From assembly GCA_020725665.1 (NCBI GenBank), contig DYEO01000024.1, positions 17,408 through 81,407 on the forward strand: a stretch of DNA of 64,000 bases, read 5' to 3'. Source of the stretch: Dethiobacter sp. (lineage in GTDB: Bacteria > Bacillota > Dethiobacteria > DTU022 > UBA8154). The notes below the pieces were generated by a model. The model ran no database searches. It was not told the DNA's origin and worked only from the letters and a program-made list of their open reading frames with translations. The position numbers and the translations under genes were made by a program. Of the stretch, positions 15,594 through 63,890 are shown one piece after another; the first letter of the stretch is position 1; every line of letters begins with the position of its first letter.

Positions 15594-15685
15594 CAATATT
15601 ATAACTGCATATTTGAAGAAAGCCATGTGCGAATGAAAAACCATTGGTGCATGGCTTTCTCAATTTTGCAAGAAGGAGGAAACCA

Positions 15686-20843: not shown

Positions 20844-21068
20844 ATGGAATATATTACTGCGAAAGAAGCTGCTGAAAAATGGGGCATATCCCAACGGCGG
20901 GTGCAGGTTCTGTGTGAACAGGGCAGAGTTGATGGAGCCAAGCGCCTTGGCTGGGTATGGGCAATTCCTAAAGATGCTCCAAAACCAGCAGATGCAAGGT
21001 TTAAAAGAGAAGAAACCAGGACTAATGAAAAGAAGATAGATGCTAGGACAGGAGGGGTTAGGCAATGA
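20844..21068 (+). CDS. HTH DNA-binding protein (excisionase/MerR-like HTH_17) translationally coupled to Type III mod
   Basis: MEYITAKEAAEKWGISQRRVQVLCEQGRVDGA is a helix-turn-helix. Its stop overlaps the mod start (ATGA). A paralog lies at 36885..37055. Confidence 0.6.
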   Translation: MEYITAKEAAEKWGISQRRVQVLCEQGRVDGAKRLGWVWAIPKDAPKPADARFKREETRTNEKKIDARTGGVRQ

Positions 21069-32460: not shown

Positions 32461-32543
32461 AAACACTTGATATGGCTGGATTTGTGTGGTACTGTGTGTT
32501 GCTGATAAAGCATCATGTACTGAAAAGTGAAAGGAGGAAGCGT

Positions 32544-40821: not shown

Positions 40822-40854
40822 TAAAGAGTTTTAAATTATTGCGGGGGGATAGAA

Positions 40855-42825: not shown

Positions 42826-42837
42826 GGAGATGTTGTA

Positions 42838-43680
42838 ATGGGTACCTCAACTTCAAACCCTGGTCCGTTTGATAGACAACCCCTTTTGCCGTCCTGGGCA
42901 CTTCCACCAGATACAGGCAACGATGCAGAGCCGAATGATGGCGAAAATGAATCCCCTGATAATGGGGATCAACAAGATAATTCACCCCTCCCAACACCAC
43001 CGGTGACATGGCAGATGGCCAAGGCTTCCATGTCCCGGTTTGCTAGTACTGGTGAAAGGAATTCTTTATCCAGGGCGGGCAGAGATTATGTCGGGGCCAA
43101 AGGTGGTAGGAGGGCGGCAGCTCAAGCGGCCAGCACAGGTAAATCGGTGGCCCTAAAAGTGGGTGGATTTCTTTCCACGGTGGCAAGTGCCGGGATAAGG
43201 ACAGCACTTGATGAGATTGGCCTAGGCCATATGGTAGGAAGAAGTGCACCGGAAGTATTGGCTGCCCTTATAGATGTACTTGCTCCCGCTGGTGCCACAC
43301 TCCAGGAAGCGGCTGCCAGGAAAGCTGCTGATGACGTCTTGGAGAAACTATACGAAGACTATATTGCAAAAACAGGAGATGTAACAGCCCTGGAAAGTCT
43401 TGATAAAGATGGTATTACCAATGCCATTGAAGCAAGTGTTGCTGGCTACATATATAACCTCTGGCTTGATGAACTGGGCTTAAGCATAGAAACAAAGGCG
43501 ATATCACCATTGCAGGCAGTAGGTTTAGAACGTGATGTCAGGGTATATGTCAGGGAACGTGTAAGGCTTGAACTGGGAGAACAAGATCCGGCGTCAATTG
43601 ACTGGAATGGCCCTGCTGGGCGTAATATCATTGATACAGTTTTTCAGGAGGCATATGGCTTTTTGGAGGTGGAACAATGA
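42838..43680 (+). CDS. qatB: Hypothetical protein (QatB position)
   Basis: No motif recognised. Assigned by position between the KAP NTPase and the QueC-like gene, with an overlapping stop/start. Confidence 0.45.
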   Translation: MGTSTSNPGPFDRQPLLPSWALPPDTGNDAEPNDGENESPDNGDQQDNSPLPTPPVTWQMAKASMSRFASTGERNSLSRAGRDYVGAKGGRRAAAQAASTGKSVALKVGGFLSTVASAGIRTALDEIGLGHMVGRSAPEVLAALIDVLAPAGATLQEAAARKAADDVLEKLYEDYIAKTGDVTALESLDKDGITNAIEASVAGYIYNLWLDELGLSIETKAISPLQAVGLERDVRVYVRERVRLELGEQDPASIDWNGPAGRNIIDTVFQEAYGFLEVEQ

Positions 43681-45005
43681 GTTGGGATGTAGTTGTTAGA
43701 ATTGGGAATAGTGATAGTTTTGCTCCTATAAGCCAGGGTGGGCCTGTATTAGGCGTATCATTTGACAGGCCGGGAGATCCATTTTTGGCTCGGGAAAGTG
43801 TCCTTGATAAAATCGCAGATGTTCTTGGTTCTGTCCCAGGAAATACTGCTTGCGATCTTTTGCGTGCTGCAATTGTTGTTTATTCTGCTGATCTATTAAT
43901 CTCACGCAGATATGCAGCAGATGGGTGGACAAGGGATATTAATGTTTATCTTCCTGTCACTTCGTTAGCAGTTTGGCAGCAGGCAGGGCCGTTACTTACC
44001 AAATTATTGACCTTTCTTAGTGGGGACCGCTGGCAATTTTACTTCCGGGAGTCTTCAGCAGAACAGGAATGTTATAAAAAACTGCCTGAAAATCTGCCTG
44101 AGGTAGTATCTTTATTTTCCGGGGGTCTCGACTCCCTTATTGGTGCTATTGACCTGCTATCGGAAGGTAAAAAGGTAGCACTTGTGTCACACCATGGAGG
44201 GGGCAGCACGCCCAAATTCCAGAATGACCTATTTAAGTGTTTAAAAGACGAATATGGTGAACAGGTAGTGCCACTCCAGTTCTATGTTCTTCCTCCGCAA
44301 GTTCCCAGAATAGATTCGGACCCAGACAACGAAGATACTACACGCACGAGATCTTTTCTGTTTTTTGTACTGGGTATTGCAGTGGCTGATACTCTGGGTA
44401 CGGGTATTCCCCTATATGTAGCTGAAAACGGGCTTATCTCACTCAATGTCCCACTGACACCAGCTCGGCTTGGCAGTTGTAGCACCCGTACAACCCATCC
44501 ATACTACATTGCTTTGTTTAGGGAATTATTGCAGGCCCTAAATTTAGCTCATCCTCTGAATCTCGATTACCGGTTTAAGACAAAAGGTGAGATGCTTAGG
44601 GAAAGTAAGAATCAGGATTTGTTAAGAAGAACCCTTCCTCTTAGCATGTCCTGCGCCCACCCGGATAATCGCCGCCTTGAGAACTTACCGCCTGGTGGTC
44701 ACTGCGGGTATTGCTTCCCCTGCATCATCCGCCAGGCAGCAGTCTTTGAAAGTGGTATACCGGATGCAGCCTATGACAATGACATTTTTCACCTGCCGCC
44801 ACTCTCAAGATCAGATAAAGGGAAAGACCTACGGGCAATGGAAATTGCTCTGGAAAGATTTAGTCAACGGGGAGAGGAGAAGGCTGTTTTTGACGTACTC
44901 AGTTCCGGACCTATCTCTCCTGATGAATTATCCCATTACATCGGGGTATATTGTCGTGGGATGAAAGAAATAGCAAAATTTTTGAGGAGTAATAAAGATG
45001 AATAG
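43677..45005 (+). CDS. qatC: QueC-like PP-loop ATPase (QatC-like)
   Basis: PP-loop LFSGGLDSLIGA and a C-terminal Cys cluster CAHPD...GHCGYCFPC, as in QueC. Confidence 0.75.
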   Translation: MSWDVVVRIGNSDSFAPISQGGPVLGVSFDRPGDPFLARESVLDKIADVLGSVPGNTACDLLRAAIVVYSADLLISRRYAADGWTRDINVYLPVTSLAVWQQAGPLLTKLLTFLSGDRWQFYFRESSAEQECYKKLPENLPEVVSLFSGGLDSLIGAIDLLSEGKKVALVSHHGGGSTPKFQNDLFKCLKDEYGEQVVPLQFYVLPPQVPRIDSDPDNEDTTRTRSFLFFVLGIAVADTLGTGIPLYVAENGLISLNVPLTPARLGSCSTRTTHPYYIALFRELLQALNLAHPLNLDYRFKTKGEMLRESKNQDLLRRTLPLSMSCAHPDNRRLENLPPGGHCGYCFPCIIRQAAVFESGIPDAAYDNDIFHLPPLSRSDKGKDLRAMEIALERFSQRGEEKAVFDVLSSGPISPDELSHYIGVYCRGMKEIAKFLRSNKDE

Positions 45006-45747
45006 CCTGAATACGGGTCGGCTAGTAGACTGTCATTTTCATTTGGACCTGTTTGAAAATCCAGTTAGGATCGCAACTGAAATTGAGGCCTCAGGGGTTG
45101 AGGTAATAGCTGTTACGAATACGCCCTCTGTTTTTAAAGCCACTCAGAACCTTGTGAGTTGCTATAAATATATTCACGCTTCTCTGGGTTTACATCCCCA
45201 ACTTGTGGGAACGCGGAGCCAGGAACTTGTACTCATGGAGAATCTAATGAAGGAAACCCGTTTTATTGGGGAAGTAGGCCTGGATTACACTACCGGAAAC
45301 GAACAGGAAATTAAGCTCCAGCGAAAGGTTTTCGAAGAGATTTTAAAGCAATGCGCAGCAGAAGGAAATAAAATTCTCAATGTTCATTCACGTAGGGCAG
45401 CCAGTGATGTTATTGCTATGATTGGGCCTAATTATCCGGGACGAGTTATTCTTCACTGGTTTAGCGGAACAATAAAAGACCTAAAAAAAGCAATGGAGTA
45501 TGGTATGTACATATCAGTCAATATTTCCATGGTAAGATCGGCTAAAGGTCAAAGCCTAATAAAGCATTTGGACCCTAATCTGGTACTCACTGAGACTGAC
45601 GGTCCTTTTGTTCGTGTCGGAAAAGTACCAGCGGTTCCTGCTGAGGTCATTAATGTGATTTATTTTCTCGCTAATGCTTGGAAATGCGATTTGGAGGAAG
45701 CAAAGGCTCGTGTCTATGCAAACTATTTCAGAGCTGTTAATTTTTAA
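44998..45747 (+). CDS. qatD: TatD-family metal-dependent hydrolase/DNase (QatD-like)
   Basis: DCHFHLD, GEVGLDY, NVHSR, HWFSG and TETDGPF motifs. Confidence 0.85.
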   Translation: MNSLNTGRLVDCHFHLDLFENPVRIATEIEASGVEVIAVTNTPSVFKATQNLVSCYKYIHASLGLHPQLVGTRSQELVLMENLMKETRFIGEVGLDYTTGNEQEIKLQRKVFEEILKQCAAEGNKILNVHSRRAASDVIAMIGPNYPGRVILHWFSGTIKDLKKAMEYGMYISVNISMVRSAKGQSLIKHLDPNLVLTETDGPFVRVGKVPAVPAEVINVIYFLANAWKCDLEEAKARVYANYFRAVNF

Positions 45748-46313
45748 TATAGCATCCTGTAAACTCTTTAAAAAAATATATAAATTTTATGTTTGGAATT
45801 TTTGATGACATCTATTTGTTGTAAAGCATAACCGAAGACATCAAATATACCAAATAATTAATGAGATTAAAGAGCTAGCATAGACGGATATTCGGTCAAT
45901 GCTTTTTAGTTTTATCTGTTTCACACGCTCAACGCATATCGAGGTTGTAGTTTCGCTCAAAAGAAAACACAGCTCATAAGGCCTTGTGCGGCAAGGCTTT
46001 ATGGGTTTTTGGGGGGAATTGGCATGTTTCCGTAGGCGGGGGGAGAAAACAGGGAATTAAGCATGCGCAAATGATTTCGGCAGGATTTGGTAGAATAATG
46101 GAGAATTTCTCAAAAAGAAACAAGATGAAGGAGAAGATTGTGGCGGATTCAAGGGACAACGCGCCTTGGCAATGTTTGAGCAATACTCAAGGATGCAAAG
46201 AAACCCGATGATGCCAGATTAAGGACGTTAAAATAGTGTAAAGGTGGTATTAAGAGACTTAAATATAATCAAAGGATAATAATGCCTACTCAGACTAGCA
46301 ATGGAGGGTATAG

Positions 46314-47903
46314 TTGATGGCCAGAGCTAAAAAGGTACAGACGAACGAAACACTGGAGCAGGCCCTTTGGAAGGCGGCCGATAAGCTGCGCAAGAATATG
46401 GATGCAGCGGAATACAAGCATGTTGTCTTGGGGCTTATCTTTTTAAAATACATATCTGATGCCTTTGAGGACTTATACCAAAAATTAAAGGATTGAAAAG
46501 GCGAATACGAAGGCGCAGATCCGGAAGACCCATACGAATACCTGGCGGAAAACGTATTTTATGTCCCGCCCCAGGCCCGCTGGCTCTACCTGCAAAACCG
46601 CGCCAAGCTGCCCACCATCGGCAAAGACATTGACGATACCATGGACGCCATCGAAAAAGACAATCCTTCTTTAAAGGGCGTGTTACCCAAGATATATGCC
46701 CGCCAGAATCTGGACAAGCAGTCTCTGGGCGGCTTGATTGATTTAATTGGCACCATTGCTCTGGGTGACGAAACGGCTAAAGCTAAGGACGTATTGGGGC
46801 AAGTATATGAATATTTCCTGGGCCAGTTTGCCCTGGCTGAAGGCAAGAAGGGCGGACAGTTCTACACGCCAAGGAGCGTAGTTCAGCTGCTGGTAGAAAT
46901 GCTTGAACCGTATGAGGGCAGGGTATTTGACCCGTGCTGTGGCAGCGGCGGCATGTTTGTCCAGAGCGAAAAATTCATCGAAGCCCACAGCGACAGGTAC
47001 AAAAACGGGAAAATGGGCGGGCTGCCCATTAATCCTGCCGACAGGATCTCCATCTACGGACAGGAGAGCAACCAGACCACCTGGCGCTTGTGCAAAATGA
47101 ACCTGGCCATCAGGGGGATTGACAGCAGCAATATTAAATGGAACGCGGAAGGTTCTTTTTTGAACGACGCCCACAAGGACCTGAAGGCCGACTTTGTCAT
47201 TGCCAATCCACCCTTTAACGACAGCGACTGGGGCGGCGAACAGCTGCGCAGTGACGCCCGCTGGCAGTACGGCGTGCCGCCGGTGGGAAATGCCAACTAT
47301 GCCTGGATCCAGCACTTTATTTACCATTTGTCTTATAGGGGTACGGCCGGTTTTGTCATGGCCAAAGGTTCCCTTTCCTCCAAAAGCAATAACGAGGGAG
47401 AAATCCGCAAAAATATTATCGAAGCCAGACTGGTGGACTGTATTGTCAACCTCCCCACCAAGCTGTTTTTGAATACCCAGATCCCGGCCTGCCTGTGGTT
47501 TTTGTCCAAAAACAAGGCCAACGGCGGCTACCGCAGCCGGCAGCATGAAATACTGTTTATCGACGCCAGGAATATGGGACGGCTGATCAACCGCCGCACC
47601 CGCGAGCTTACCCAGGAGGACATCGATTTAATTGCCAGTACCTATCATAACTGGCGCAACATAGACGGTGACTACAAGGATGTTCCCGGTTTCTGCAAAT
47701 CGGCGACCATTGAAGAAGTGGCCGCGCTGGATTATGTTTTAACTCCGGGACGCTACGTAGGATTGCCTGAAGAAGAGGACGATTTCGATTATGAAGAAAG
47801 GATCAAGCAGTTAACCAGAGAGCTGAAGCAGCAGATGGAAGAGTCCCAGAGGCTGGACAGGGCAATTGCGGAAAATTTAAGGAAGATAGGGATTGAGCTA
47901 TGA
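46314..47903 (+). pseudogene. hsdM: Type I R-M methyltransferase HsdM interrupted by an in-frame TGA (46494-46496)
   Basis: N-terminal [43 protein letters not shown], then TGA, then in the same frame [29 protein letters not shown]...[10 protein letters not shown]...IANPPFN (motifs I and IV). The ORF track shows only the two pieces (46314..46496 and 46641..47903). Confidence 0.8.
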
Positions 47904-48988
47904 GTGAGTGGAAGGAAGTTAAGCTGGGGGAGATAGTGGATATAATTGGTGGTGGTACACCTAAAACCAGCGTTAAAGAATATTGGAACGGCGACATTCC
48001 TTGGTTGTCGGTAACTGATTTTAATAACAACAGAAGGTATGTATATGAAACAGAAAAAAGTATAACAGAAAAAGGATTAAACGAAAGTTCTACAAAGCTA
48101 TTAAAAAAAGGTCAACTGATTATTTCAGCAAGAGGAACTGTTGGTGCTTTAGCTCAATTAGCAAGAGATATGGCTTTTAACCAGTCGTGTTATGGTTCAC
48201 ACGGTGCTGTCTTTGATACCATTACGAGGGAAACGTTCGATTTTATAGATGTTATTTTACCCCCCCTCCCCGAACAAAAAGCCATCGCCGGCATCTTAAG
48301 CAGCCTGGACGACAAAATAGAACTGCTGCACAGGCAGAACAAAACCCTGGAAGCTATGGCAGAGACCATATTCAGGAAGTGGTTTGAGGAGGAGGCAAGC
48401 GAAGATTGGGAAATTAAAAAACTTAAAGATTTTGGTAAGATTGTATGCGGTAAAACGCCTCCGACGGTTAATAAGGAGTTTTTTAACGGTAACATACCGT
48501 TCATAAAGATACCAGATATGCATAATAAAGTATTTGTTTTTGATACGATAGATACTCTTTCTGATAAAGGCGCAGAATATCAAGCAAATAAGTTTATTCC
48601 CCCTATGTCGATTTGTGTTAGTTGCATCGCAACAGTAGGATTGGTTTCAATGAACGCATTCAAATGCCAGACAAATCAGCAGATTAATTCTCTCATACCG
48701 CAACATGACAAATATAGATATTATCTATTTCTCTTTTTAAGAGGATATCGACATGAATTATTTGCGCTTGGAAGTGGTGGAACTATGACTCTTAATATAA
48801 ATACTACTTTATTTGGTGAGATAGAATGCTATGCTCCAGATGACTATACTCTATCGAGGTTTAACAATATAATCAAACCGATTTTTGATAAAATATTTAA
48901 TAATTGCAATCAAATCCGCACCACTACAAAACTCCGCGATACATTGCTTCCCAAGCTGATCAGCGGGGAAATCCGGGTTAAGGTTTGA
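47900..48988 (+). CDS. hsdS: Type I R-M specificity subunit HsdS
   Basis: Conserved N-terminal, central and C-terminal HsdS regions ([15 protein letters not shown], central [23 protein letters not shown]-terminal [12 protein letters not shown]) with two AT-rich target-recognition domains. Confidence 0.85.
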
Positions 48989-48998
48989 TTGATAAGGG

Positions 48999-51900
48999 GT
49001 GGAAAATATGCCGAAACTGTGCGAGAACGATATAGAATTAATGGCCATAGAGGAGCTGGAGAAGCTGGGCTATACCTATATTCCTGGCCCCAGCATAGCA
49101 CCTGACGGGGAAAATCCTGAGAGGCAGTCTTACAGAGACGTTTTGTTAGTTGGCCGCGTGCGTTCGGCTATTGCTAAATTAAATCCTACCATCCCTTATG
49201 ATGCCCGGGAAGAGGCGCTGAAGCAGCTGATGCGCCTTTCCTCCCCTGACCTTATAACCAATAACGAACAATTTCACAAATTCCTGACCGAAGGCGTCGA
49301 TGTGGAATACCGCAAAAACAGCGAAATTGTAGGTGACAAAGTGTGGCTCGCTGATTTTGCGCACCCGGAAAATAATGAGTTCCTGGGAGTAAACCAATTT
49401 ACCGTTATGGAAAACAACCAGAACAAGCGCCCCGATGTGGTGCTGTTTATCAACGGCTTGCCCCTGGCGGTTATGGAACTGAAAAACGCAGCCGACGAAA
49501 ATGCGACCATTGGCGAAGCCTACGAGCAGGTTCAGACCTATAAAGCCACTATTCCCACTCTCTTTAACTACAACGAGCTGATTATTATCTCTGACGGGCT
49601 GGAGGCCAAAGCAGGTTCTCTTTCCGCTGAATTTTCGCGCTTTATGGCCTGGAAAACCCGCGACGGCTTAAGGGAAGCGCCTCGGCATGCAGGGCAATTG
49701 GAGACCCTTATCCACGGTATGCTGAAAAAAGAGGTCGTCCTCGACTTAATCCGCTACTTTATCGTCTTTGAGAAATCCAAAACAGAAGATAAACAAACAG
49801 GCCTTGTCAATATCCAAACGGTTAAGAAAATAGCGGCCTATCACCAGTATTATGCGGTAAATAAGGCTATAAGGAGTACCCTTGAAGCAGCCTCGGAAAA
49901 CGGTGACAGGAAGGGCGGGGTAATCTGGCACACCCAGGGCAGCGGAAAATCTCTCACCATGGTTTTTTATACAGGGAAACTGGTGCAACTGCTCAATAAC
50001 CCGACCGTAGTAGTGATTACCGATAGAAACGACCTGGACGACCAGTTGTTTGACACCTTTGCCGCCTCGGCACAAATACTAAAGCAGCCTCCGGTCCAGG
50101 CGGAGAGCAGGGAGCACTTAAAGGACCTCCTGCGGGTAGCCTCAGGCGGGATTATCTTCACTACCATTCAGAAGTTTTTGCCTGAAGACGATAAACTCCA
50201 GTTTGATTTATTAAGCGAGAGACGAAACATCGTGGTAATTGCCGATGAAGCCCACCGGACCCAATACGGATTTAATGCCAGGATAAGAAACATCAAGGAT
50301 GAAAACAAGAGCATCGTGGCGCAAAAAATCGCTTACGGCTTTGCCAAATACATGCGGGACGCCCTGCCCAATGCCACATATATCGGTTTTACCGGCACGC
50401 CCATCGAAAAAGAAGACGCCAATACCCCGGCAGTGTTCGGCAATTATGTTGATATTTATGATATCGCCCAGGCGGTGGAAGACGGGGCAACGGTGCGCAT
50501 TTACTACGAAAGCAGGCTGGCCAAAGTCAACCTGGACGAAGAAGGAAGGCGCCTGATTGAAGAGTTTGACGCCGAACTGGAGGAAACCGACGAATTGTCC
50601 GAAGCCCAGAAAGCCAAGGCCAAGTGGGCAAAATTAGAGGCCATCGTCGGGCATCCCAAGCGCATTGCCAACCTGGCAAAAGATATCATTGAGCATTTTG
50701 AAGCAAGGCAGGCGGTATTCGCAGGCAAAGGCATGATTGTGGCCATGAGCCGCCGGATTGCCGTTGACTTGTACAACGAAATCATAAAGCTGCGCCCCCA
50801 GTGGCACCATGACGGCCTGGACAAAGGGGTGATCAAAGTGGTGATGACGGCGGCCAGCTCCGACGGGGTGGAAATGCAAAAGCATCACACCACCAAGGCC
50901 CAGAGGAAAATGCTGGCGGACCGCATGAAAGATGAAAATGACCCGTTAAAGCTGGTCGTTGTGCGGGACATGTGGCTGACCGGCTTTGACGTGCCCTGCC
51001 TGCATACCATGTACATAGACAAACCCATGAAAGACCACAACTTGATGCAGGCCATTGCCCGGGTGAACAGGGTTTTCAAAGACAAGCCGGGGGGCCTGGT
51101 GGTTGACTATATCGGGATCGGCACCAGCCTAAAGAAGGCACTTTCTTTTTATTCCCATGCCGGTGGCAAGGGCAGCCCGGCGGAAACCCAGGAAAAGGCT
51201 GTAGACATCATGCTGGAGAAGCTGGAAGTCGTCCGCCAGATGTACCATGGGTTCGATTACAGCAAATATTTTGCTGCTCCAACCGGCGAAAAGCTATCAT
51301 TTATCTTAAGGGCGGAAGAACATATTTTAGGCTTGGAGGACGGCAAAGGGCGCTACCTCAAAGAAGTGACCCTCTTAAGCCGCGCCCATGCCCTGGCCAC
51401 ACCGCACCCTAAAACCCGGGAACATGCAGAAGAGATTGCCTTCTTTCAGGCGGTCAAGGCCAGGCTGGTTAAGTTTGAACCAGGCGGAGCAGGCGGTGGG
51501 TCAAGCTGGGAAACGACCATCAAGCAGATTGTCGATGAAGCTTTAAGCTCTGAACAGGTGATAGACATCTTTGCTGCGGCAGGCATGGAAAAACCCGAAA
51601 TCTCCATTCTTTCTGAAGATTTCTTAGCAGAAGTCAAAAACATGAAGCATAAAAATTTAGCCATTGAGCTTTTGAAAAAACTGCTCAACGACGAAATAAA
51701 AGAGCGGGGCAGGCTAAACTATGTTGTGGGCAAATCCCTTATGCAGATGCTGGAGACGGCGATAAAGAAATATCAAAACAATCTACTGACTACAGCTGAA
51801 GTAATCGAAGAGCTGATCAGGATTGCCAAAGAGATTAACGCTGCCGACAGGCGGGGAGAAGACTTGGGCCTCAGCAAAGACGATTTGGCCTTTTATGATG

Positions 51901-52217
51901 CCCTGGGGGTTAACGACAGTGCGGTTAAAGTTCTGGGCGACGACACGCTACGGGATATTGCCAGGGAACTTGCCGATAAGGTGCGTAAGAACGCCACCAT
52001 TGACTGGACAGTGAAGGAAAGCGTGCGGGCAAGGCTGATGGTCCTGGTGCGGCGGACGTTGAATAAGTACGGCTACCCGCCGGACAAACAGCAGCAAGCC
52101 GTGGAAACCGTCATGAAACAGGCGGAGATATTGGCAGATAGGTGGGCTTCACCGCAAGTTGCCTATGATATTGACCCCCTCTTTGGGATGGCCAGGGCAG
52201 CAGAAACAAAAGAGTAA
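48999..52217 (+). CDS. hsdR: Type I restriction enzyme R subunit HsdR
   Basis: SF2 motifs HTQGSGKSLTM and IADEAHRTQ, QAIARVNR, and 1072 aa length. Confidence 0.9.
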   Translation: MENMPKLCENDIELMAIEELEKLGYTYIPGPSIAPDGENPERQSYRDVLLVGRVRSAIAKLNPTIPYDAREEALKQLMRLSSPDLITNNEQFHKFLTEGVDVEYRKNSEIVGDKVWLADFAHPENNEFLGVNQFTVMENNQNKRPDVVLFINGLPLAVMELKNAADENATIGEAYEQVQTYKATIPTLFNYNELIIISDGLEAKAGSLSAEFSRFMAWKTRDGLREAPRHAGQLETLIHGMLKKEVVLDLIRYFIVFEKSKTEDKQTGLVNIQTVKKIAAYHQYYAVNKAIRSTLEAASENGDRKGGVIWHTQGSGKSLTMVFYTGKLVQLLNNPTVVVITDRNDLDDQLFDTFAASAQILKQPPVQAESREHLKDLLRVASGGIIFTTIQKFLPEDDKLQFDLLSERRNIVVIADEAHRTQYGFNARIRNIKDENKSIVAQKIAYGFAKYMRDALPNATYIGFTGTPIEKEDANTPAVFGNYVDIYDIAQAVEDGATVRIYYESRLAKVNLDEEGRRLIEEFDAELEETDELSEAQKAKAKWAKLEAIVGHPKRIANLAKDIIEHFEARQAVFAGKGMIVAMSRRIAVDLYNEIIKLRPQWHHDGLDKGVIKVVMTAASSDGVEMQKHHTTKAQRKMLADRMKDENDPLKLVVVRDMWLTGFDVPCLHTMYIDKPMKDHNLMQAIARVNRVFKDKPGGLVVDYIGIGTSLKKALSFYSHAGGKGSPAETQEKAVDIMLEKLEVVRQMYHGFDYSKYFAAPTGEKLSFILRAEEHILGLEDGKGRYLKEVTLLSRAHALATPHPKTREHAEEIAFFQAVKARLVKFEPGGAGGGSSWETTIKQIVDEALSSEQVIDIFAAAGMEKPEISILSEDFLAEVKNMKHKNLAIELLKKLLNDEIKERGRLNYVVGKSLMQMLETAIKKYQNNLLTTAEVIEELIRIAKEINAADRRGEDLGLSKDDLAFYDALGVNDSAVKVLGDDTLRDIARELADKVRKNATIDWTVKESVRARLMVLVRRTLNKYGYPPDKQQQAVETVMKQAEILADRWASPQVAYDIDPLFGMARAAETKE

Positions 52218-52274
52218 GCCGCTGAACTTTTCTCTGTGGGAAGGTTCAGTGATTACCTATGATAGTGAATAATT

Positions 52275-54095
52275 GTGCAAAAGGAAAGGAGGGCGAGCGC
52301 TTTGCCGACACAGCGCTATGCGGTTACCCAGCCGCCCATCGAGACTGTGCTTACGTGGATAAAATCCGGAGAAATCGCAATCCCGGAAATCCAGCGCCCC
52401 TTTGTTTGGAATGCCACAAAGGTCCGGAATTTTCTGGATTCATTATTTCAAGGGTTCCCAGTGGGTTACTTAATTGCCTGGCGCAACCCCAACATTAAGC
52501 TCAAGGACGGGACCCTTTCTTCCGGCAAGCGCATTTTAATTGACGGGCAGCAACGGGTAACAGCCCTGATGGCTTCATTGCTGGGACAGGAAGTGGTGAA
52601 TAAAAATTACCAGAGGGTTAAAATTCGCATTGCCTTTAATCCCAAAGAAAAAAGATTTGAAGTCACAAACCCTGCCATTGAAAAAGACAGCTCTTGGCTG
52701 CCGGATATATCCCTGGTCTTTAGCCCTCATACCAGCTTGTTTGAACTTGTAAACAGGTATTGTGAGAGGAACCCGGATACCACAACGGACGAGGTTTTTA
52801 AAAGCATTGAGCTGCTTAAGCGTATTACCAGCAACCAGATCGGCCTCATAGAGCTTGACTCCGAGCTTGATATAGAAACAGTTACTGAGATTTTTATCCG
52901 GGTCAATTCCGAGGGGGTAGCTTTAAACCAGGCCGACTTTGCCATGTCGAAAATCGCTGTCAATGAAACTTATGGGGGCAATATGCTCCGCAAGGCTATT
53001 GATTATTTTTGCCATATGGCAGTTAACCCTGAATTTTTCAACGTTGTTAAGAATGACGCTGTTTTTGCCCGCAGCGAGTTTTTTAACCGCATGGCCTGGT
53101 TGGGTAAAGAAAACGATCGCCTGTATGAGCCTTCTTATACAGATATGCTGCGGGTAGCGTTTACTTCTGAATTTAAAAGGGGACGTTTGGAAGACCTGGT
53201 GGCGCTATTATCCGGCCGCAACTTTGAAACCAGGCAGTACGAGGAAGCCATAGTGGAAGATTCTTTCAGCAGGCTGAAACAGGGTATTTTAAACTTTGTC
53301 AATGAAACAAATTTCCAACGCTTTATCATGATCATCCGCTCCGCCGGGTTTGTGGACTCCTCCTTGCTTGGTTCACAAAACGCGCTGAATTTTGCTTATA
53401 TCCTGTATTTAACTATGCGCGGGCAGGGCATACCTCCCGCTGAGATTGAACGTTATGTCCGCCGCTGGTATGTAATGACCGTCCTAACCGGGCGCTATTC
53501 CGGCGATCCGGAAGGAACGATGGACTATGACATTCGCCAGATACATACTCAAGGGGTGCAGGCCTATTTAGACGGGCTAATCCGCGGGGAGCTCTCTGAG
53601 ACCTTCTGGGAGGTAGCCTTGCCCCAGGCTTTAAATACCTCGGTGGCCTCCAGCCCCTATTTCCGTGTGTTCCAGGCTGCCCAGGTAAAGCTGGGCGACC
53701 GCGGCTTTCTCTCTAAAGACATCGGCGTGCGGGAGCTGGTGGAAATCCGGTCGCATGTGCACCACATATTTCCCAGCGACTATTTAAAGAAAAAGGGTTT
53801 TGCCAGAGGGCAGTACAACCAGATTGCCAACTATGTGGTGGCGCAGAGCGAAATAAATATTGCCATAGGCAATAAGGAGCCGAAAGTTTACTTTCAAGAG
53901 CTCCTTGCTCAATGCCAGGGTGGCCCTAAAAAATACGGTAATATAACGGACCTACAGGAGCTGCAGGAAAACCTGGCTATGAACTGTATTCCTGATGGTA
54001 TGGAAAAAATGGCCGCCGATGACTACGAAGAGTTTTTGAAGAAGCGCCGCAAATTAATGGCGGAGAAAATAAGAACATATTTTGAGAGCCTGTAG
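52275..54095 (+). CDS. DUF262 (ParB-like) / DUF1524 (HNH-like) nuclease, GmrSD/BrxU-like Type IV restriction enzyme
   Basis: [10 protein letters not shown] and [10 protein letters not shown] (DUF262 DGQQR motif). C-terminal [13 protein letters not shown] is a His-Me finger. The start may be TTG 52302, given RBS AGGAGGG. Confidence 0.8.
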
Positions 54096-55546: not shown

Positions 55547-55741
55547 ATGCAAAGTATTCATGAGCGGTGCTGCGGGCTGGATGTCCATAAAAAGACCATT
55601 ACGGCCTGCATCATCACACCAAAGGGGAAGGTGATCAAAACTTTTGGCACGATGACCGGCGAGATCCTGGAGCTTGTAGAGTGGATTAAAGAGCATCAAT
55701 GCACGCAAGTAGCCATGGGTGTTGCCTCTCACGCACACTGA
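55547..55741 (+). mobile_element. IS110-family transposase N-terminal fragment (64 aa, truncated)
   Basis: CGLDVHKKTITACIITPKGKVIKTFGT....LVEWIKEHQCTQVAMG matches the IS110 N-terminal DEDD domain (G.D..K....A..D) but ends after 64 aa. The fragment is GC-rich (about 55%). Confidence 0.55.
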
Positions 55742-56523: not shown

Positions 56524-56768
56524 GTTTAAATGCTCAATTAAGGGAGCCCTATGTAAAGCCGATAAAGGGTGCGCGATACAAGGGAATTTTTGAATTGAGA
56601 GTTAAATTCGCATCGGACATCAGCAGAATATTTTATTTCACATACCACGAAAAAACCTTTGTGCTGCTTCATGGTTTTACCAAGAAAACCGAAAAAACGC
56701 CGCAAAGAGAGCTTGAACGGGCACTGCGTTATAAAGAAGATTATGAAAGAAGGTGTGATGATGAGTAA
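56520..56768 (+). CDS. Type II toxin (RelE/ParE superfamily, HigB/Gp49-like)
   Basis: IFELRVKFASDISRIFYFTYHEKTFVLLHGFTKKTEKTPQRELERA is the Gp49/HigB-like signature. It is followed by an XRE antitoxin. Confidence 0.7.
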   Translation: MSLNAQLREPYVKPIKGARYKGIFELRVKFASDISRIFYFTYHEKTFVLLHGFTKKTEKTPQRELERALRYKEDYERRCDDE

Positions 56769-57045
56769 AGCTGGAGCGAAGTTTTCCGAAGTGAAAGAGC
56801 TTTTGATGAAAGACGAAGAATTCAAAGCAGAGTACGAAAAGCTAAAACCACGTTATGATGTGATTTCCCAAATCATTGAAGCAAGAACAAGCCAAAACAT
56901 TACCCAAGAAGAATTGGCACTCCGGGTTGGGACTCAGAAATCTAATATCAGCCGCCTGGAAAGCGGAACGTATAATCCATCCCTTGACTTTTTGGCTAAA
57001 GTTGCCCGATCCCTTGGGAAAGAGGTACAGATCATATTAAAATAA
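56758..57045 (+). CDS. XRE-family HTH antitoxin (HigA-like)
   Basis: HTH QNITQEELALRVGTQKSNISRLESG. ATGATG start with RBS AAGGTG. Overlaps the toxin stop. Confidence 0.7.
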   Translation: MMSKAGAKFSEVKELLMKDEEFKAEYEKLKPRYDVISQIIEARTSQNITQEELALRVGTQKSNISRLESGTYNPSLDFLAKVARSLGKEVQIILK

Positions 57046-57262
57046 GGGATTGAGAAGTCATAAAGAAATATACGTGACAGCATTGATGACTATAGTTAAG
57101 GCGCTGAGAAATCAGGGCCTTTTCCTTTAGCACAGAAAATTATTGGGAATATGGCAGTCATAAAAAATATTGCTGTAATTATAGATACTGCTGTAATCCA
57201 TTGTTTTGATAGCATGAAAGGAGTATAATATAATAAGAATACTACTACAAGGAGTTGATACC

Positions 57263-57553
57263 ATGCAGATTAAACCGTCCGCAAGCATCCGACAGAATTA
57301 CAACGAAATTGCGGCGTTGTGCAAGTCCACCGGAGAGCCTGTGTATCTTACCAAAAACGGCGAGGGCGATCTTGTGGTTATGGATATAGAGGCGTTTACC
57401 CGTCGTGAAAAAATGCTGAAGCTGCGGGAAGAACTGCTGGCTGTTGAGGAAGACCGTCTGGCCGGCCGTGTCGGAACTACACCGGATGAACTGGACAAAT
57501 ACCTGGACGGTATTATTGACGAGGTGGAACATGGAAAAGAAGCCTCAATATAA
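57263..57553 (+). CDS. Phd/YefM-family antitoxin
   Basis: MQIKPSASIRQNYNEIAALCKSTGEPVYLTKNGEGDLVVMDIEAF is the classic Phd/YefM N-terminus. Confidence 0.8.
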   Translation: MQIKPSASIRQNYNEIAALCKSTGEPVYLTKNGEGDLVVMDIEAFTRREKMLKLREELLAVEEDRLAGRVGTTPDELDKYLDGIIDEVEHGKEASI

Positions 57554-57848
57554 GGTGATCGTTTCCGACCGTGCCCGCCAAATGCTGGCGGGCCATGTCC
57601 GTTTTCTGGCACAGAAAAGCCCTGCTGCCGCCCGCAAGGTGAAAAACGATCTGATGGACGCTATCCGTTCCCTGCATCAAATGCCCCAGCGTTTTCCATT
57701 TCTGGACGCGGAATTTATGCCGCCCAACAAATATCACAAGATGTTCGTAGAAAAATGGTATCTCATTCTATATCAGATCAAGGACCAGACGGTATACGTT
57801 GATTATATTGTTGATTGCAGGCAGGATTATGGGTGGTTGGTGCGATAA
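57531..57848 (+). CDS. RelE/ParE-family toxin
   Basis: About 105 aa starting at ATG 57531 with RBS GAGGTGG. Overlaps the antitoxin end and has ParE-like length and charge pattern. Confidence 0.65.
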   Translation: MEKKPQYKVIVSDRARQMLAGHVRFLAQKSPAAARKVKNDLMDAIRSLHQMPQRFPFLDAEFMPPNKYHKMFVEKWYLILYQIKDQTVYVDYIVDCRQDYGWLVR

Positions 57849-59306: not shown

Positions 59307-59903
59307 ATGATGGACAATATCGAGAAAATCAGAGAGATGCTCGCGCAAAACAATGGAATAATTACCGCTTCACAGGTTACGGAGGCTAATATACCAAGGC
59401 ATTATCTGAAAAAAATGCTGGACATGAAGCTCCTGACCAAGGTTGACAGGGGGATTTATATCAAGCCGGAAATGTGGGAAGACGAAATGTATATATTGCA
59501 GTACAAGTACAGCAGAGGCATTTTCTCCCATGAAACGGCCTTGTATATTCACGGCCTTACGGATAGGACGCCCATGAAATATACCATGACATTTCCCTAT
59601 GGATATCATGTGCATTCCTTGAAACAAGAAAATGTCAAAGTCAAAAAAGCCGTCGAAGATTTATACGAACTCGGATTGACTACCGGCATTTCTCCCTGTG
59701 GCAATCCGATCCGTTTGTACGATGTGGAACGGACGCTTTGCGATATTGTCAAGGGCAATAATACCTGTGACATCCAGATTGTGAATCAGGCCATGAAGCA
59801 GTACGCCAAGATGCCGGGGAAGAATATTACACGGCTTTTTAACTACGCCGAGAAAGTACGGGTAAAACCCAAAATACTGAACTATATGGGAGTTTTGTTA
59901 TGA
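59307..59903 (+). CDS. abiEi: AbiEi-family antitoxin (type IV TA / abortive infection)
   Basis: N-terminal wHTH plus AbiEi_4-like body, directly upstream of and overlapping the AbiEii gene. Confidence 0.7.
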   Translation: MMDNIEKIREMLAQNNGIITASQVTEANIPRHYLKKMLDMKLLTKVDRGIYIKPEMWEDEMYILQYKYSRGIFSHETALYIHGLTDRTPMKYTMTFPYGYHVHSLKQENVKVKKAVEDLYELGLTTGISPCGNPIRLYDVERTLCDIVKGNNTCDIQIVNQAMKQYAKMPGKNITRLFNYAEKVRVKPKILNYMGVLL

Positions 59904-60244
59904 GAACGAACAATCCGATGCAACTGAAAGCATATATAAAAAAGATGGCCGCCGAAAAAAACATTTCCGCCCAGCTTGTCATGCAGAACTACATGCTGGA
60001 GCGGCTGCTGGAACGTATTTCCGTATCCAGGTATCAATCCAATCTGATCTTAAAAGGCGGCTTTTTGATTTCAGCCATTGTTGGACTGGATGCAAGAGCG
60101 ACGATGGATTTGGATGCCACAATCAAAGGTTTTGACATTACGCATGATACCGTCAGGAGAATTTTTAAGGAAATAGGCTCCTTTCCAATGAGTGTTTGTT
60201 ATGGAAGTGGACACGTACCCTCCCGCTATTCTAGCTCGTTATAA
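59900..60244 (+). pseudogene. abiEii: AbiEii nucleotidyltransferase toxin, N-terminal 114 aa only (truncated)
   Basis: MQLKAYIKKMAAEKNISAQLVMQNYMLERLLERISVS...ILKGGFLISAIVGLDARATMDLDATIKGF matches the AbiEii/DUF1814 N-terminus. Full-length proteins are about 290 aa. The ORF ends where an opposite-strand two-gene module begins. Confidence 0.7.
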
Positions 60245-60426
60245 TCAAACAACTCCTCTACGTTGACCCCGAAAAAGCGCGCCATTTTAAAGGCTAATTT
60301 TAGGGAAGGGTCGTACTTGCCTTTTTCGATGGCATTAACGGTGGCCCGGGCCACACCGATCTTTTTGGCCAATTCTTCCTGCGTCAGATCATGAATGGCC
60401 CGGTGGACTTTTAATTTGTTCTTCAT
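60226..60426 (-). CDS. Small XRE-family HTH regulator (YozG-like)
   Basis: MKNKLKVHRAIHDLTQEELAKKIGVARATVNAIEKGKYDPSLKLAFKMARFFGVNVEELF is an HTH_3 type. Confidence 0.65.
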   Translation of the reverse strand: MKNKLKVHRAIHDLTQEELAKKIGVARATVNAIEKGKYDPSLKLAFKMARFFGVNVEELFDYNELE

Positions 60427-60995
60427 TATTTTTTCAACTCCATGATGGCAATGTTGATAAGCCAAAAAATAAATGCTACTGATAAGACACCAATCCACAA
60501 ACCCTGCTCGTCAAGGCTTATCCAAGGTTGGATAAGTGCCGCTATGACCATGAAAAAGAGGAACAGGTAAGACCATGCACTGGCCCAAGCAAAGTGCGAC
60601 AAGTACCTTTCGTCGTATACCGGAGCATCTTGAAAAAACACCTTGCTGTCGGAACGAAGAATAAAGAACAAAACAACGATGAAGCCCAGTAAATAGATAC
60701 CCATAACCCTTGTTGCAGTTATATCAACATGTAAGAGCGAAAGCAGAAGTGAAACCAAACCGGTAAAGGCAATAGGGAGTGTCAGAGCCAGCGCAATCGC
60801 GCCTATACGCCTGGCAGAGTGCTTCCTGCGGGCGTAAAAATGTATAAATGCTCCCAAGGCAACTCCCGTGGATACACCTAAAATACCTGCCAGATTGATA
60901 TTTTCCGAGTATAAGTATTGCGCTAAAACAGTCCCGAACAATGATCCTGTGAACAGCAAAATGTAGAAAACAAACCAGCCGATTTTTCCATTCAC
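60426..60995 (-). CDS. Membrane protein (multi-TM), co-operonic with small XRE regulator
   Basis: Five or six predicted TM helices. GTG start at 60995 with RBS GGGGG. Overlaps the downstream HTH gene. Confidence 0.5.
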   Translation of the reverse strand: MNGKIGWFVFYILLFTGSLFGTVLAQYLYSENINLAGILGVSTGVALGAFIHFYARRKHSARRIGAIALALTLPIAFTGLVSLLLSLLHVDITATRVMGIYLLGFIVVLFFILRSDSKVFFQDAPVYDERYLSHFAWASAWSYLFLFFMVIAALIQPWISLDEQGLWIGVLSVAFIFWLINIAIMELKK

Positions 60996-61137
60996 CTGTA
61001 TCGCCCCCTTTATACAAAATGTAAAGCATTAATAACATTATGTCAATATATCTTATCATTGCAAAGATAAAATTATACCTCCAAGTGTAGGAAAACTATA
61101 CCTGGCTCTCTGCTGGTCTTTAATACTTCTACCACAT

Positions 61138-61449
61138 ATGGGTTCAACGTCCATTGCGGGAATGCGATCAGCCCCTTTGACCATAACGGATTGGAAAGGC
61201 TGGCTTAAGTATCATCCGGGCTCCTGTCTCGCAGGAACGGATGACTTACGTCCCGGCGTCAAAAGCTGCAGAAGGGTTAGCCAGAGTGTCATGTCAAATT
61301 ACAAAACGGTGTTGGAAAACATCGCCGCAAGTGAACAAATGAAAGGCTTTTGGAGAAAATACCAAACAGATTTTGACTATGCGAAGGACATTGATTTTAC
61401 GGATGTCTGCCATATGATTGTCCGGGTTTTTGATGAAATTGGTTTTTAA
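61138..61449 (+). CDS. Hypothetical protein
   Basis: 103 aa ORF. The start may be the internal Met (MSNYKTV). Confidence 0.2.
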   Translation: MGSTSIAGMRSAPLTITDWKGWLKYHPGSCLAGTDDLRPGVKSCRRVSQSVMSNYKTVLENIAASEQMKGFWRKYQTDFDYAKDIDFTDVCHMIVRVFDEIGF

Positions 61450-61598
61450 GATATACAATAAAACTCTATCTCATTGAAAATTTGAGTTTGTTTGTAAAGT
61501 AAATAAGAATATAAATTTATCCCCAATTATGGTGTGGGTGCTGAAAGAATCAGTGCCTTTTTCTTTTGCGCAAAATCAAAGAGGAGGTTTTGTCATTT

Positions 61599-61826
61599 AT
61601 GAAAACCTATCAGGTGGAAATCAGAGAAACGCTTTGCATGACCGTCGAGGTCAAAGCGAAAAACGCACAAGAAGCGGAAGCGATGGTGACAGTGTAGGAA
61701 GCATACAACAATGAAGAATACATCCTCGACGCGGAACACTTTGCCGGGGTGGAGTTTGCAGCACGGGAAAAAGAAATCGAAGCACGGAGCAGGGGCCAAA
61801 AGCGCCGCCAGTATGAACGATGACCG
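61599..61826 (+). pseudogene. DpnD/PcfM-like small protein with in-frame TAG at 61695-61697
   Basis: RBS AGAGGAGG then MKTYQVEIRETLCMTVEVKAKNAQEAEAMVTV, then TAG, then EAYNNEEYILDAEHFAGVEFAAREKEIEARSRGQKRRQYER. This resembles the DpnD/PcfM family (MK.Y.V.I.ET.....VE....EQAE..V...W.N.EY.LD...F.GVEF). Confidence 0.4.
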
Positions 61827-61878
61827 CCAGACTTTCCTTTTCGGCCGGTGGTATCTGAAACCAACCATAACTTTTACT

Positions 61879-61983
61879 ACAACACAAGACAGCTGTCTTG
61901 TGTTGTAGTGTTGTAGTTGTAGTAGTTGTAGCAAGCACTGAATTTGGTCTCCCAAATTCGCTTGTTAGGGGCGTTGCCCCTAA
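61879..61983. repeat. Palindrome and microsatellite cluster
   Basis: Perfect 28-bp palindrome ACAACACAAGACAGCTGTCTTGTGTTGT (61879-61906), (T)TGTAG tandem repeats (61901-61932), hairpin GAATTTGGtctcCCAAATTC (61940-61959) and hairpin TTAGGGGCgttGCCCCTAA (61965-61983). Confidence 0.7.
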
Positions 61984-62124
61984 TACCCCTGCATAGTTAC
62001 ACGTTTGCTCCCCATGAATATATCCGATGTTGATTGTTATAGGGGAAGAAAACATAAGAATAAAGTTTACCCTGAACTGTCACAATCGTGGCGGTTTTTT
62101 TCATTTATATCACCATAAGGAAGG

Positions 62125-62931
62125 ATGATGAACATGAAAACCTATGACAATGCTGATAAGTGGCGGCAGGAATTCCGCGCCGTCATCGACTGCAAGAACG
62201 CCTTTACAGAAAACGCGGCGCTCTCCCGCAGCTACCATGACCGCAAGCTGCCCGAATTTCTGAAAGAAATCATCGTAGCACATGGATGGGATCGCGTCCG
62301 GCAGGTGCTGGCCGCAACCGTCAACCACGCCCCCTGGAACGGAAGGTATGACCACACGGTAAAGGAATGGGCGGCACGGGTGGAACCTTTCCCGCAGTTT
62401 TCGGGGCATCAGGGAGAACCACGGGATTTTTACGAGTTTTGCCTCAATACACACCCCGTCATCGTCAACGATACGGCGCGGCTTTTAAGGAAACTCACCG
62501 GCCTGCAGGCGCTATACTTCCACTACCTCTACAAGATGGGCATTTTGCCCAGACAGCGCGCGTCCAACAAACGGACGCATTTTTTATTGCGCGAGGACAT
62601 CCGCTATCTGGATCAGCTCACCGCGCAAACAAAGCTGCTCTGCACTCACCGCATTGAGAATAAAGAGCAGCTTCTCACCTATCGGTATGGGCTGGAGCAG
62701 GAAATGGAGTCCCTGGCTGCCGCCCGCAAATCCCTGTACAACAGGATAGGCCGCTGCAAGGACGACGGGCAGATTGCGGCATACAAGCAGCAGATTTCCG
62801 AACTTTCCAAGAAACTGTCCCTGCTCCGGAAGGAGGTGAAACTGTGTTCGGGCATCCTGTCCCGTTCCGAGGAAATGAAGATTATGAAGCGCCGCCGGAG
62901 GAACAAAACTTCCCGATGGTCATGGAAATGA
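62125..62931 (+). CDS. Hypothetical conjugative-element protein (GC about 58%)
   Basis: 268 aa ORF with no firm motif. Its 3' part overlaps, in another frame, the start of the T4CP fragment. Confidence 0.25.
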   Translation: MMNMKTYDNADKWRQEFRAVIDCKNAFTENAALSRSYHDRKLPEFLKEIIVAHGWDRVRQVLAATVNHAPWNGRYDHTVKEWAARVEPFPQFSGHQGEPRDFYEFCLNTHPVIVNDTARLLRKLTGLQALYFHYLYKMGILPRQRASNKRTHFLLREDIRYLDQLTAQTKLLCTHRIENKEQLLTYRYGLEQEMESLAAARKSLYNRIGRCKDDGQIAAYKQQISELSKKLSLLRKEVKLCSGILSRSEEMKIMKRRRRNKTSRWSWK

Positions 62932-63890
62932 TTGCCGCCGCTGAGGTGCGGGAGGAGGACGAAACCTACCAAAGCCCCCTTGATGAGCTGTTTGAGCGGC
63001 TGGAAATGCGGGAGCCGGAACACCTGGCGGTCAAGCAGTACAACATTTTCAAGCTGGCGGCGGGAAAAACGGCCAAATCCATTTTAATCAGCCTGGGCGT
63101 CCGGCTGGAGAAGTTCAATCTGGCCTCCATCGCCGGAATCACCACCACGGACGAACTGGAGCTGCCGTCCATCGGAGAACGCAAAACGGCGCTCTTTGCC
63201 GTAATCCCCGATAATGACAGCAGCTTTAATTTTGTCGTGGGGATGCTCTATACCCAGTTATTTCAACAGCTCTACTACCTTGCCGACCATGTACACGGCG
63301 GGCGGCTTCCCGTCCATGTCCATTTCGTCATGGACGAATTTTCCAATGTCGCCCTGCCGGATGAGTTTGACAAGCTGCTGTCCACCGTGCGCTCCCGGGA
63401 GATCAGCGTTTCCATCATCCTGCAAAATCTGGCGCAATTAAAAGCTCTGTTCAAAGACACCTGGGAGTCCATCGTCGGCAACTGCGACGAATTCCTGTAC
63501 CTGGGCGGCAACGAGCAGTCCACCCATAAGTATGTCTCCGAGCTTTTGGGCAAGGAAACCATCGACTTAAACACCTACGGGCAGAGCAAGGGCGGTCACG
63601 GCAGCTTCTCCACCAATTGCCAGTTGTCGGGCCGGGAGCTTCTGACCCCCGACGAAGTGCGGATGCTGGACAACCGCTGCGCCCTGCTGTTCATCCGGGG
63701 CGAGCGGGCGGTGATGGACGACAAGTACGATATTTTAAAACACCCTAATTTGAAGTTGACCGTTGACGGCGGCGGCGAACCCTTCCGGCACGGGGAGACT
63801 CCCCATGCTTTGGACTGGAAAGCCGTTACGCTGGTCAAGGAAGGCGATTACGAGCTTCTGTCCGAGGAGGAACTCGAAGCCATGATTTAA
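62844..63890 (+). pseudogene. VirD4/TraG-family coupling protein, C-terminal half only
   Basis: VHFVMDEFSNVALP (Walker B region), ILQNLAQLKALF, and LYLGGNEQSTHKYVSELLG are typical of the T4CP C-terminal half. The N-terminal TM/Walker A half is missing. It is distinct from the TcpA-like gene at 15686. Confidence 0.55.

Follow-up and report, generated by a model that had tools for sequence, protein, structure and literature searches.

A probable transfer origin of the Tn1549 (MOBP7) family in a decayed conjugative element of Dethiobacter sp.

Known MOBP transfer origins and the cluster in the window

In IncP RP4 and IncI R64 (MOBP1), which show the classical MOBP arrangement, the transferred strand has an inverted repeat some 8 nt 5' of nic, to which a ribbon-helix-helix accessory protein (TraJ or NikA) binds, and the relaxase operon is transferred last. 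Tn1549, the vanB2 conjugative transposon, has a MOBP7 relaxase, Orf28, and a MobC-like protein, Orf29; Tsvetkova, Marvaud and Lambert are said to have mapped its oriT, in 2010 (J Bacteriol 192:702), to the orf29-orf30 intergenic region. That study is named among those mapping a nic site (PMC6414798), and an oriTDB-derived table gives the nic sequence as RYGCTTG^C for Tn1549 and as TGCTTG^CCA for the MOBP7 plasmid pRJ6 (PMC7755788; the caret marks the nick). For the Tn1549 nick, the strand and precise position used here are taken from the motif string in this secondary table and from the reported place of oriT. The Tn1549 relaxase has been reported to act preferentially in cis (PMC6856555).

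The window, i.e. the whole 64,000-nt stretch of Dethiobacter sp. DNA that was analysed, carries a cluster of inverted and direct repeats in non-coding DNA, on which our analysis and an earlier note on the sequence agree. The most prominent component, IR1, is a 34-bp perfect palindrome (61876-61909, no strand assigned; ACTACAACACAAGACAG followed by CTGTCTTGTGTTGTAGT), with core arms CAACACAAGAC (61880-61890) and GTCTTGTGTTG (61895-61905) on either side of a 4-nt spacer. The 28-bp perfect palindrome pointed out in the earlier note is indeed present, at 61879-61906, nested in the 34-bp one; a search for this 28-mer, allowing up to three mismatches, gave 0 matches in 100 dinucleotide-preserving shuffles of the window. 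The repeat tract at 61900-61930 reads GTGTTGTA GTGTTGTA GTTGTA GTA GTTGTA. It had been described as about five TTGTAG repeats; the tract is there, with four exact copies of TTGTAG rather than five, and Tandem Repeats Finder reports a period of 9, 3.6 copies and a score of 41. Between the tract and two further hairpins stands GCAAGCACT. These hairpins, which had also been noticed before, are both exact, with 8-bp stems: H2 is GAATTTGG tctc CCAAATTC (61940-61959), and H3 is TTAGGGGC gtt GCCCCTAA (61965-61983).

Comparison with other sequences makes it very likely that the cluster is the oriT of an integrative conjugative element of the Tn1549 family (MOBP7), stranded as a relic. Homology, position upstream of the mob operon, a motif match, spacing and covariation were all observed and form the basis of this assignment. 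A transfer origin of the neighbouring element had been one of the options offered for the cluster, and it gains support on two counts: dozens of related elements, and Tn1549 as well, carry a homologue of the module immediately upstream of mobC and the relaxase gene, and the recorded Tn1549 nic motif occurs in the module. Specifically, opposite plus-strand GCAAGCAC (61931-61938) the minus strand reads GTGCTTG^C, and the window matches RYGCTTG^C on this strand only. Because the plus-strand copy of GCTTG, TCGCTTGT, does not fit RY..^C, the nick is predicted on the minus strand, between 61932 and 61931.

Read along the minus strand, the order of the components is 5'-GGGGTA, H3, CAAGC, H2, AGT, GCTTG^C, (expansion), IR1, box-3'. 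H2, the putative relaxase-recognition hairpin, occupies 61932-61964 (minus strand) if its 8-bp stem at 61940-61959 is taken together with an extension in which CAAGC (61932-61936) pairs with GCTTG (61960-61964); from the end of the 8-bp stem to the predicted nick, which lies 3' of it, there are 8 nt. When the minus strand was folded as single-stranded DNA (-37.3 kcal/mol, z = -6.75), the extended H2 stem was present, so that the nick would fall at the 3' foot of this longer hairpin. H3 and the conserved TACCCC that adjoins it (61984-61989) together span 61965-61989 (minus strand), and IR1 lies just 3' of the predicted nick. Beyond IR1, a MAFFT alignment of 46 relatives with 100-nt flanks revealed a conserved upstream box, TTTTCGGCCGGTG in the window (61838-61850, no strand assigned) and TTYYCGGCNGGT in the consensus.

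The module shares with Tn1549 (L003, on pMG2200) its position directly upstream of mobC and the relaxase gene and the succession of its parts, which in the intergenic region upstream of the Tn1549 mobC are TAGCAAGCAT, a hairpin, GCTTG, TTGGGGAaaTCCCCAA and ACCCC. At the equivalent place, the strand antisense to mobC reads ATGCTTG^C, the end of the hairpin lies 8 nt 5' of this nic motif, and Tn1549, like the relatives of the module, encodes a PF03432 relaxase and a NikA-like/MobC protein. The 28-nt stretch comprising H2, spacer and nic is presumably Tn1549 22239-22266 (GGGAGTGgctaCACTCCCTATGCTTGCT), antisense to mobC. However, the Tn1549 relaxase is 35% identical to that of the subfamily to which the window belongs, approximately 45 nt are inserted between H2 and GCTTG, a weak 7-bp repeat takes the place of IR1 with its 11-bp arms, and blastn detects no DNA-level similarity to the module; the window, unlike Tn1549, has lost the cognate relaxase. 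Staphylococcal plasmids of the pC221/pRJ6 type (MobC and MobA, MOBP7) have the nic core TGCTTG^CCA (PMC7755788), encode MobC beside oriT and possess a related relaxase (158 Staphylococcus plasmids in a tblastn search with the L001 relaxase), but they are small plasmids, not integrative elements. The resemblance to RP4 and R64 extends to the accessory protein, given that MobC of the module's relatives matches the Pfam NikA-like family, whereas the nic core (YATCCTG^Y vs. GCTTG^C; PMC7755788) and the relaxase subfamily are different. Among the features by which an oriT can be recognised, we thus find the nic motif, an inverted repeat at a fixed distance and, in the relatives and Tn1549, a position upstream of mobC and a PF03432 relaxase gene; a relaxase and MobC encoded in cis are missing from the window.

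Conservation and covariation of the module

The module was found, with order and spacing unchanged, in 61 other loci (genomes, a plasmid and metagenomes), and in those with enough sequence it is almost always located 80-520 bp upstream of a mobC-relaxase-PcfB-VirD4 operon. The 20-bp core of the palindrome has one occurrence among 185,579 species-representative genomes, in a Syntrophomonas metagenome-assembled genome (L001) that keeps the palindrome, both hairpins and about 25 nt of the left flank, is without the repeat tract, and carries mobC, relaxase, PcfB and VirD4 genes about 200 bp downstream. In a Cohnella plasmid (L002), the module lies 110 bp upstream of an annotated mobC, and its IR1, CAACGCGAGAC gaat GTCTCGTGTTG, includes a compensatory change from A-T to G-C. 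A metagenome scan with the pattern GTGTTG-N(0-30)-GCAAGCA-N(12-40)-GCTTGTTAGGGG returned 59 loci, in which the invariance of the fixed letters (GTGTTG, GCAAGCA and GCTTGTTAGGGG) is partly a matter of ascertainment; in nine of the metagenome loci, as in the window, a DUF3849 gene stands between the module and the mob operon. The relaxases encoded next to the modules belong to PF03432, and the MobC proteins match the Pfam NikA-like and MobC families. One subtype has a ParE toxin gene instead of DpnD upstream of the module, and the module is unchanged.

Since blastn of the L002 module against plasmids gave only L002 itself, Tn1549 was reached through the relaxase protein, as were the other distant members, in Subdoligranulum (L004, L006) and Monoglobus (L005). 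Just upstream of mobC, L003-L006 display the same skeleton, namely (T)AGCAAGCA, a hairpin with a different stem, GCTTG, a TTRGGGG..CCCCYAA hairpin and (T/A)ACCCC. Exact-protein look-ups of the two ORFs flanking the cluster, megablast against phages and a scan of viral contigs with the module pattern produced no match, and megablast against plasmids matched the VirD4 gene only.

In alignment A1 (46 sequences), 97.9% of the cells are paired and four pairs show double-sided changes; these values were reached in 0 of 500 shuffles, a control that overstates significance because the members of the alignment are related, and the slid controls were 33-48% paired. The H2 stem begins exactly 3 nt after CAAGC, i.e. 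8 nt from the predicted nick, in 40 of the 46 distinct sequences, Tn1549 among them, and this spacing is kept despite at least nine different, unrelated stem sequences (GAATTTGG, GAATATGG, GAATTTTG, GGGAGTG, GCCTTTGTG, GAATCTGT, GAACCTGT, GCATCTGC and GCGTTTGT). In L005, the two sides of the H2 extension change together, CGAGC with (A)CTCG. The invariance of GCAAGCA in A1 is not independent evidence for the nic motif because the search pattern fixed it; independent support comes from the presence of the motif in Tn1549, L004 and L006 and from the covarying CGAGC variant in L005. The left arm of H3, TTAGGGG, was likewise fixed by the pattern, whereas the right arm, CCCCTAA, and TACCCC lie outside the pattern and are nearly invariant across A1, with a variable loop. 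The equivalents of H3 are TTGGGGA aa TCCCCAA ACCCC in Tn1549 and TCTGGGGC aat GCCCCTGA AACCCC in L006.

The arms of IR1 are conserved with compensatory change (in A1, pair 13/26 is A-T in 28 sequences, G-C in 14 and G-T in 3), and in 44 of the 46 sequences 3 nt lie between the end of the right arm and the predicted nick. The spacer AGCT occurs in the window and L001 only, and the perfect palindrome is peculiar to these two because in most relatives the spacer lacks self-complementarity. The left half of IR1 carries two differences between the window and L037, both of which bring the window closer to perfect symmetry. The upstream box (TTTTCGGCNGGTG / TTCYCGGCAGGT) is kept 5' of IR1 in both sequence subtypes at different spacing, about 38 nt from IR1 in one and about 8 nt in the other, and is a putative binding site for an accessory protein. 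IR1 is weak in Tn1549, and no counterpart was seen in the distant members; IR1 and the box TTTTCGGCNGGTG may be accessory sites particular to this subfamily.

The earlier note's TTGTAG microsatellite corresponds to a 23-nt expansion (61908-61930, no strand assigned; GTGTTGTA GTTGTA GTA GTTGTA) between IR1 and the nic motif, with an insertion point that is ambiguous within 61900-61930 because the units repeat. Relative to the consensus GTGTTG(C/T)AGCAAGC, the window has 23 extra nucleotides, L037 has 8 (a single extra GTGTTGTA) and the 44 other distinct sequences have none, so that the guess of a variable repeat number holds as variation between relatives. This series of lengths indicates a recent, stepwise expansion by slippage at the foot of IR1. 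The expansion lies directly 3' of the predicted nick, leaves GTGCTTG^CTACAAC intact and breaks the otherwise fixed distance from IR1 to nic; it is curious and probably inconsequential. There is a slim chance, in our judgement, that the tract is a hypermutable spacer that toggles oriT on and off through the changed distance between nic and IR1. The three alleles (0, +8 and +23 nt) and the two symmetry-ward substitutions relative to L037 are compatible with active mutation at the tract, and such a spacer could arise by hairpin-promoted slippage or by aberrant strand transfer by the relaxase; if real, it would amount to contingency-type control of conjugative transfer in elements of gut Clostridia.

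Several relatives depart from the common layout. In L008, L044, L049, L050, L024, L026 and L010, cargo directly downstream of H3 stands in place of mobC, which in L010 follows only 2.9 kb further on; judged by the translated sequences, the cargo 3' of H3 includes SIR2-like and TIR-like proteins, a cytosine methylase with Vsr and a restriction enzyme, a helicase, and BlaI/BlaR1. On sequence grounds, cargo and defence genes have often entered just 3' of the site, and the stretch from oriT to mobC looks like a hot spot for such insertions. In eight loci (L014, L021, L028, L051, L058, L061, L062 and L065), IR1 is absent, homology to the module ends directly after GCTTGTTAGGGGG, and the right arm of H3 is missing, with mobC and the relaxase gene still downstream; the break could be a recombinant junction within oriT. 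In L025, a second GCAAGCA-hairpin-GCTTG unit stands in tandem with the module, about 45 nt upstream of it, and L049 has a second, inverted partial module at the start of the contig (1-45, as oriented), about 1.25 kb from the first, possibly an assembly artefact. In the window, a second GCAAGCA..GCTTG match at 21319-21360, without a hairpin and inside a methylase ORF (21065-24208), was rejected as a chance match.

Alternative readings of the cluster

IR1 could instead act at the RNA level, as an intrinsic terminator or stabiliser of the DpnD operon or as a structure in the 5'-UTR of the mob operon, with the smaller hairpins as further RNA structures. A consensus scan marks 61875-61910 as terminator-like, and IR1 begins about 50 nt after the stop codon of the DpnD-like ORF. 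However, the terminator-like call is a by-product of the expansion specific to the window, which supplies the T-rich tail: in 44 of the 46 relatives, IR1 is followed by (C/T)AGCAAGCACTG and there is no T-run, so that, in place of the conserved T tract that would follow the GC-rich stem of a terminator, the relatives have CAGCAAGCACTG. The single-sided changes in IR1, which on the plus strand are mostly of the G.T type (30 cells vs. 4 for A.C), might also seem to favour a folded RNA, but the search pattern had a fixed right arm, which explains the excess and makes the asymmetry uninterpretable, and we dropped it as an indicator of the folding strand. Moreover, the module stays the same where ParE replaces DpnD upstream, Rfam yields only sub-threshold matches to eukaryotic miRNA hairpins, and neither the nic motif nor the 8-nt spacing is explained by RNA structure. 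We therefore regard an RNA element as unlikely to account for the cluster; an RNA-level role of IR1 could nevertheless coexist with its role in oriT.

Readings at the DNA level other than a transfer origin fare worse still. An element end, an attachment site or another site for a serine or tyrosine recombinase, as proposed in the earlier note, would suit a palindrome in non-coding DNA near a shift in GC content, in a window with three serine recombinase genes; the loss of module homology directly after GCTTGTTAGGGGG in the eight loci of the L014 type and the frequent insertion of cargo just downstream of H3 also point in this direction. Against it, the continuous synteny in relatives that had been named beforehand as speaking against a boundary is what we observed. 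Synteny crosses the cluster in L037, L033, L046, L043 and L035; L037 is collinear with window positions 59392-62494, and L033, L046 and L043 are collinear with 61540-62490, with uninterrupted alignment through 61530-62135 for L037 and L033. The cluster is accordingly not an element end. The module furthermore keeps a constant internal position upstream of the mob operon, the recombinase genes are 25 kb from the cluster, beside another conjugative element, one with a MobL relaxase, and no second copy or half-site of the module was found elsewhere in the window. A recombinase site is thus highly improbable, and we give equally little credence to a replication origin in which the repeats would serve as iterons and the palindrome as an unwinding element. 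Short direct repeats do adjoin a palindrome here, and rolling-circle replication of integrative elements can also start from some relaxase-type origins. Nonetheless, the repeats are missing in 44 of the 46 relatives and so cannot be a conserved functional part; the units are slippage units of 6-9 nt, not iterons of 17-22 bp, and no rep gene is adjacent.

The decayed element and its probable transfer origin

The transfer origin, as we read the cluster, sits in the remains of the element that it would have served. To its left lies a DpnD/PcfM-like pseudogene (61599-61823, plus strand) with an in-frame TAG, identified by translation, at 61695-61697, where relatives have CAG; the intact homologue in L033 matches PF14207 (E=2.9e-20). 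To its right, a fusion ORF (62125-62931, plus strand) joins the N-terminal part of a DUF3849 protein (to about 62494) to the C-terminal third of a MobA/VirD2-type relaxase (about 62487-62880), as shown by the Pfam DUF3849 match and by tblastn and blastn against L001, L043, L046 and L037. It is followed by the C-terminal part of a VirD4/TraG coupling protein of the CD1115 type (62883-63890, plus strand; in ORF 62844-63890), which matches the Pfam profile from position 162 of 468 and, by blastn, L043 5182-6297 and L001; the matching plasmid genes are annotated 'VirD4-like conjugal transfer protein, CD1115 family'. The ORFs right of the cluster are therefore deletion remnants of the mobC-relaxase-PcfB-VirD4 operon. 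Compared with the intact L043, about 1.27 kb are gone, comprising the 3' end of DUF3849, mobC and relaxase residues 1 to ~299, as are a further ~2.74 kb with the end of the relaxase gene, PcfB, two small genes and the first ~250 aa of VirD4. The catalytic domain of the relaxase is among the parts deleted from the window.

In the earlier note, remnants of a second conjugative element were thought to begin at the cluster, but they are already present to the left of it, in the form of the DpnD/PcfM-like pseudogene and backbone-associated toxin-antitoxin genes. The latter (56533-57848) form two pairs, one of a Gp49-like toxin and an HTH partner, the other of Phd and ParE. A homologue of this segment directly adjoins the DpnD gene or the module in L046, L015, L033, L007, L012 and L042, which marks the stretch 57.85-61.54 kb as cargo inserted within this one element. 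L037, the closest relative, is about 87-93% identical over its collinear part. As for base composition, a rise in GC is real (from ~0.39-0.48 to ~0.55); it does not fall exactly at the cluster, as had been claimed, but near 62100-62200, where the next ORF starts, 150-250 bp to the right, and it is a contrast between cargo and backbone, not a junction. Because mobC and relaxase residues 1 to ~299 are deleted, the window holds a homologue of the site rather than a working system; with mobC and the relaxase catalytic domain gone, and the Tn1549 relaxase reported to be cis-acting, the site is most likely an inactive relic. The element as a whole is a decayed, probably immobile remnant.

Other parts of the window were annotated as well. 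Within the cargo, an AbiEii toxin ORF comes after an AbiEi antitoxin gene (together 59307-60244); the toxin gene is disrupted, since its 114-aa ORF covers only profile positions 1-63 of 238, and L037 is 92% identical to the window over 59392-60189 in this region. Positions 1-36708 belong to a separate conjugative element of another family, with a VirB4-like ATPase (3447-5279), the MobL relaxase (12190-13965), a coupling protein (15644-17524), a DUF3991/Toprim primase, a large methylase/helicase pair and the three serine recombinase genes (32472-36708), of which the middle one (34146-35126) lacks the catalytic resolvase domain. A defence island follows (37056-54095), which comprises a Gabija-like pair (37056-40821; an OLD-type AAA_15/TOPRIM ATPase, then a UvrD helicase), a KAP NTPase (40855-42825), type I restriction-modification genes (hsdM 46641-47903, hsdS, hsdR 48999-52217), a GmrSD endonuclease (52275-54095) and a TatD DNase. 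A 64-aa ORF at 55547-55741 (MQSIHERCCGLDVHKK...) is, we assume, similar to an N-terminal fragment of an IS110-family transposase.

In an intact relative, a MobA/VirD2-type relaxase and a ribbon-helix-helix MobC would recognise H2, and perhaps H3, on the minus strand, and cleavage would occur 8 nt 3' of H2, within 5'-GTGCTTG^C-3' (window 61938-61931); the place and strand of the nick, like the protein contacts, are predictions from the sequence. The minus strand would then be transferred 5' to 3', such that the side with IR1 and DpnD enters the recipient first and the mob genes last, and H2 and H3 would be read again at termination. IR1 and the box TTTTCGGCNGGTG may bind MobC or another accessory protein, or form a hairpin. 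In the window, mobC, the relaxase catalytic domain, PcfB and the VirD4 N-terminus were lost through two deletions, DpnD next to the site has a nonsense codon, and the 23-nt slippage expansion has moved IR1 away from the predicted nick.

If the assignment as an oriT is right, this eye-catching feature is a standard, already understood part of a very common family of conjugative elements in gut Firmicutes, which corrects the notion of the feature as an element boundary. The comparative set provides an oriT signature for Tn1549-like elements and for relaxase-less islands, whose parts come in the order upstream box, IR1, GCAAGC (nic), a covarying hairpin at a fixed distance, GCTTG, the TTAGGGG hairpin and TACCCC.
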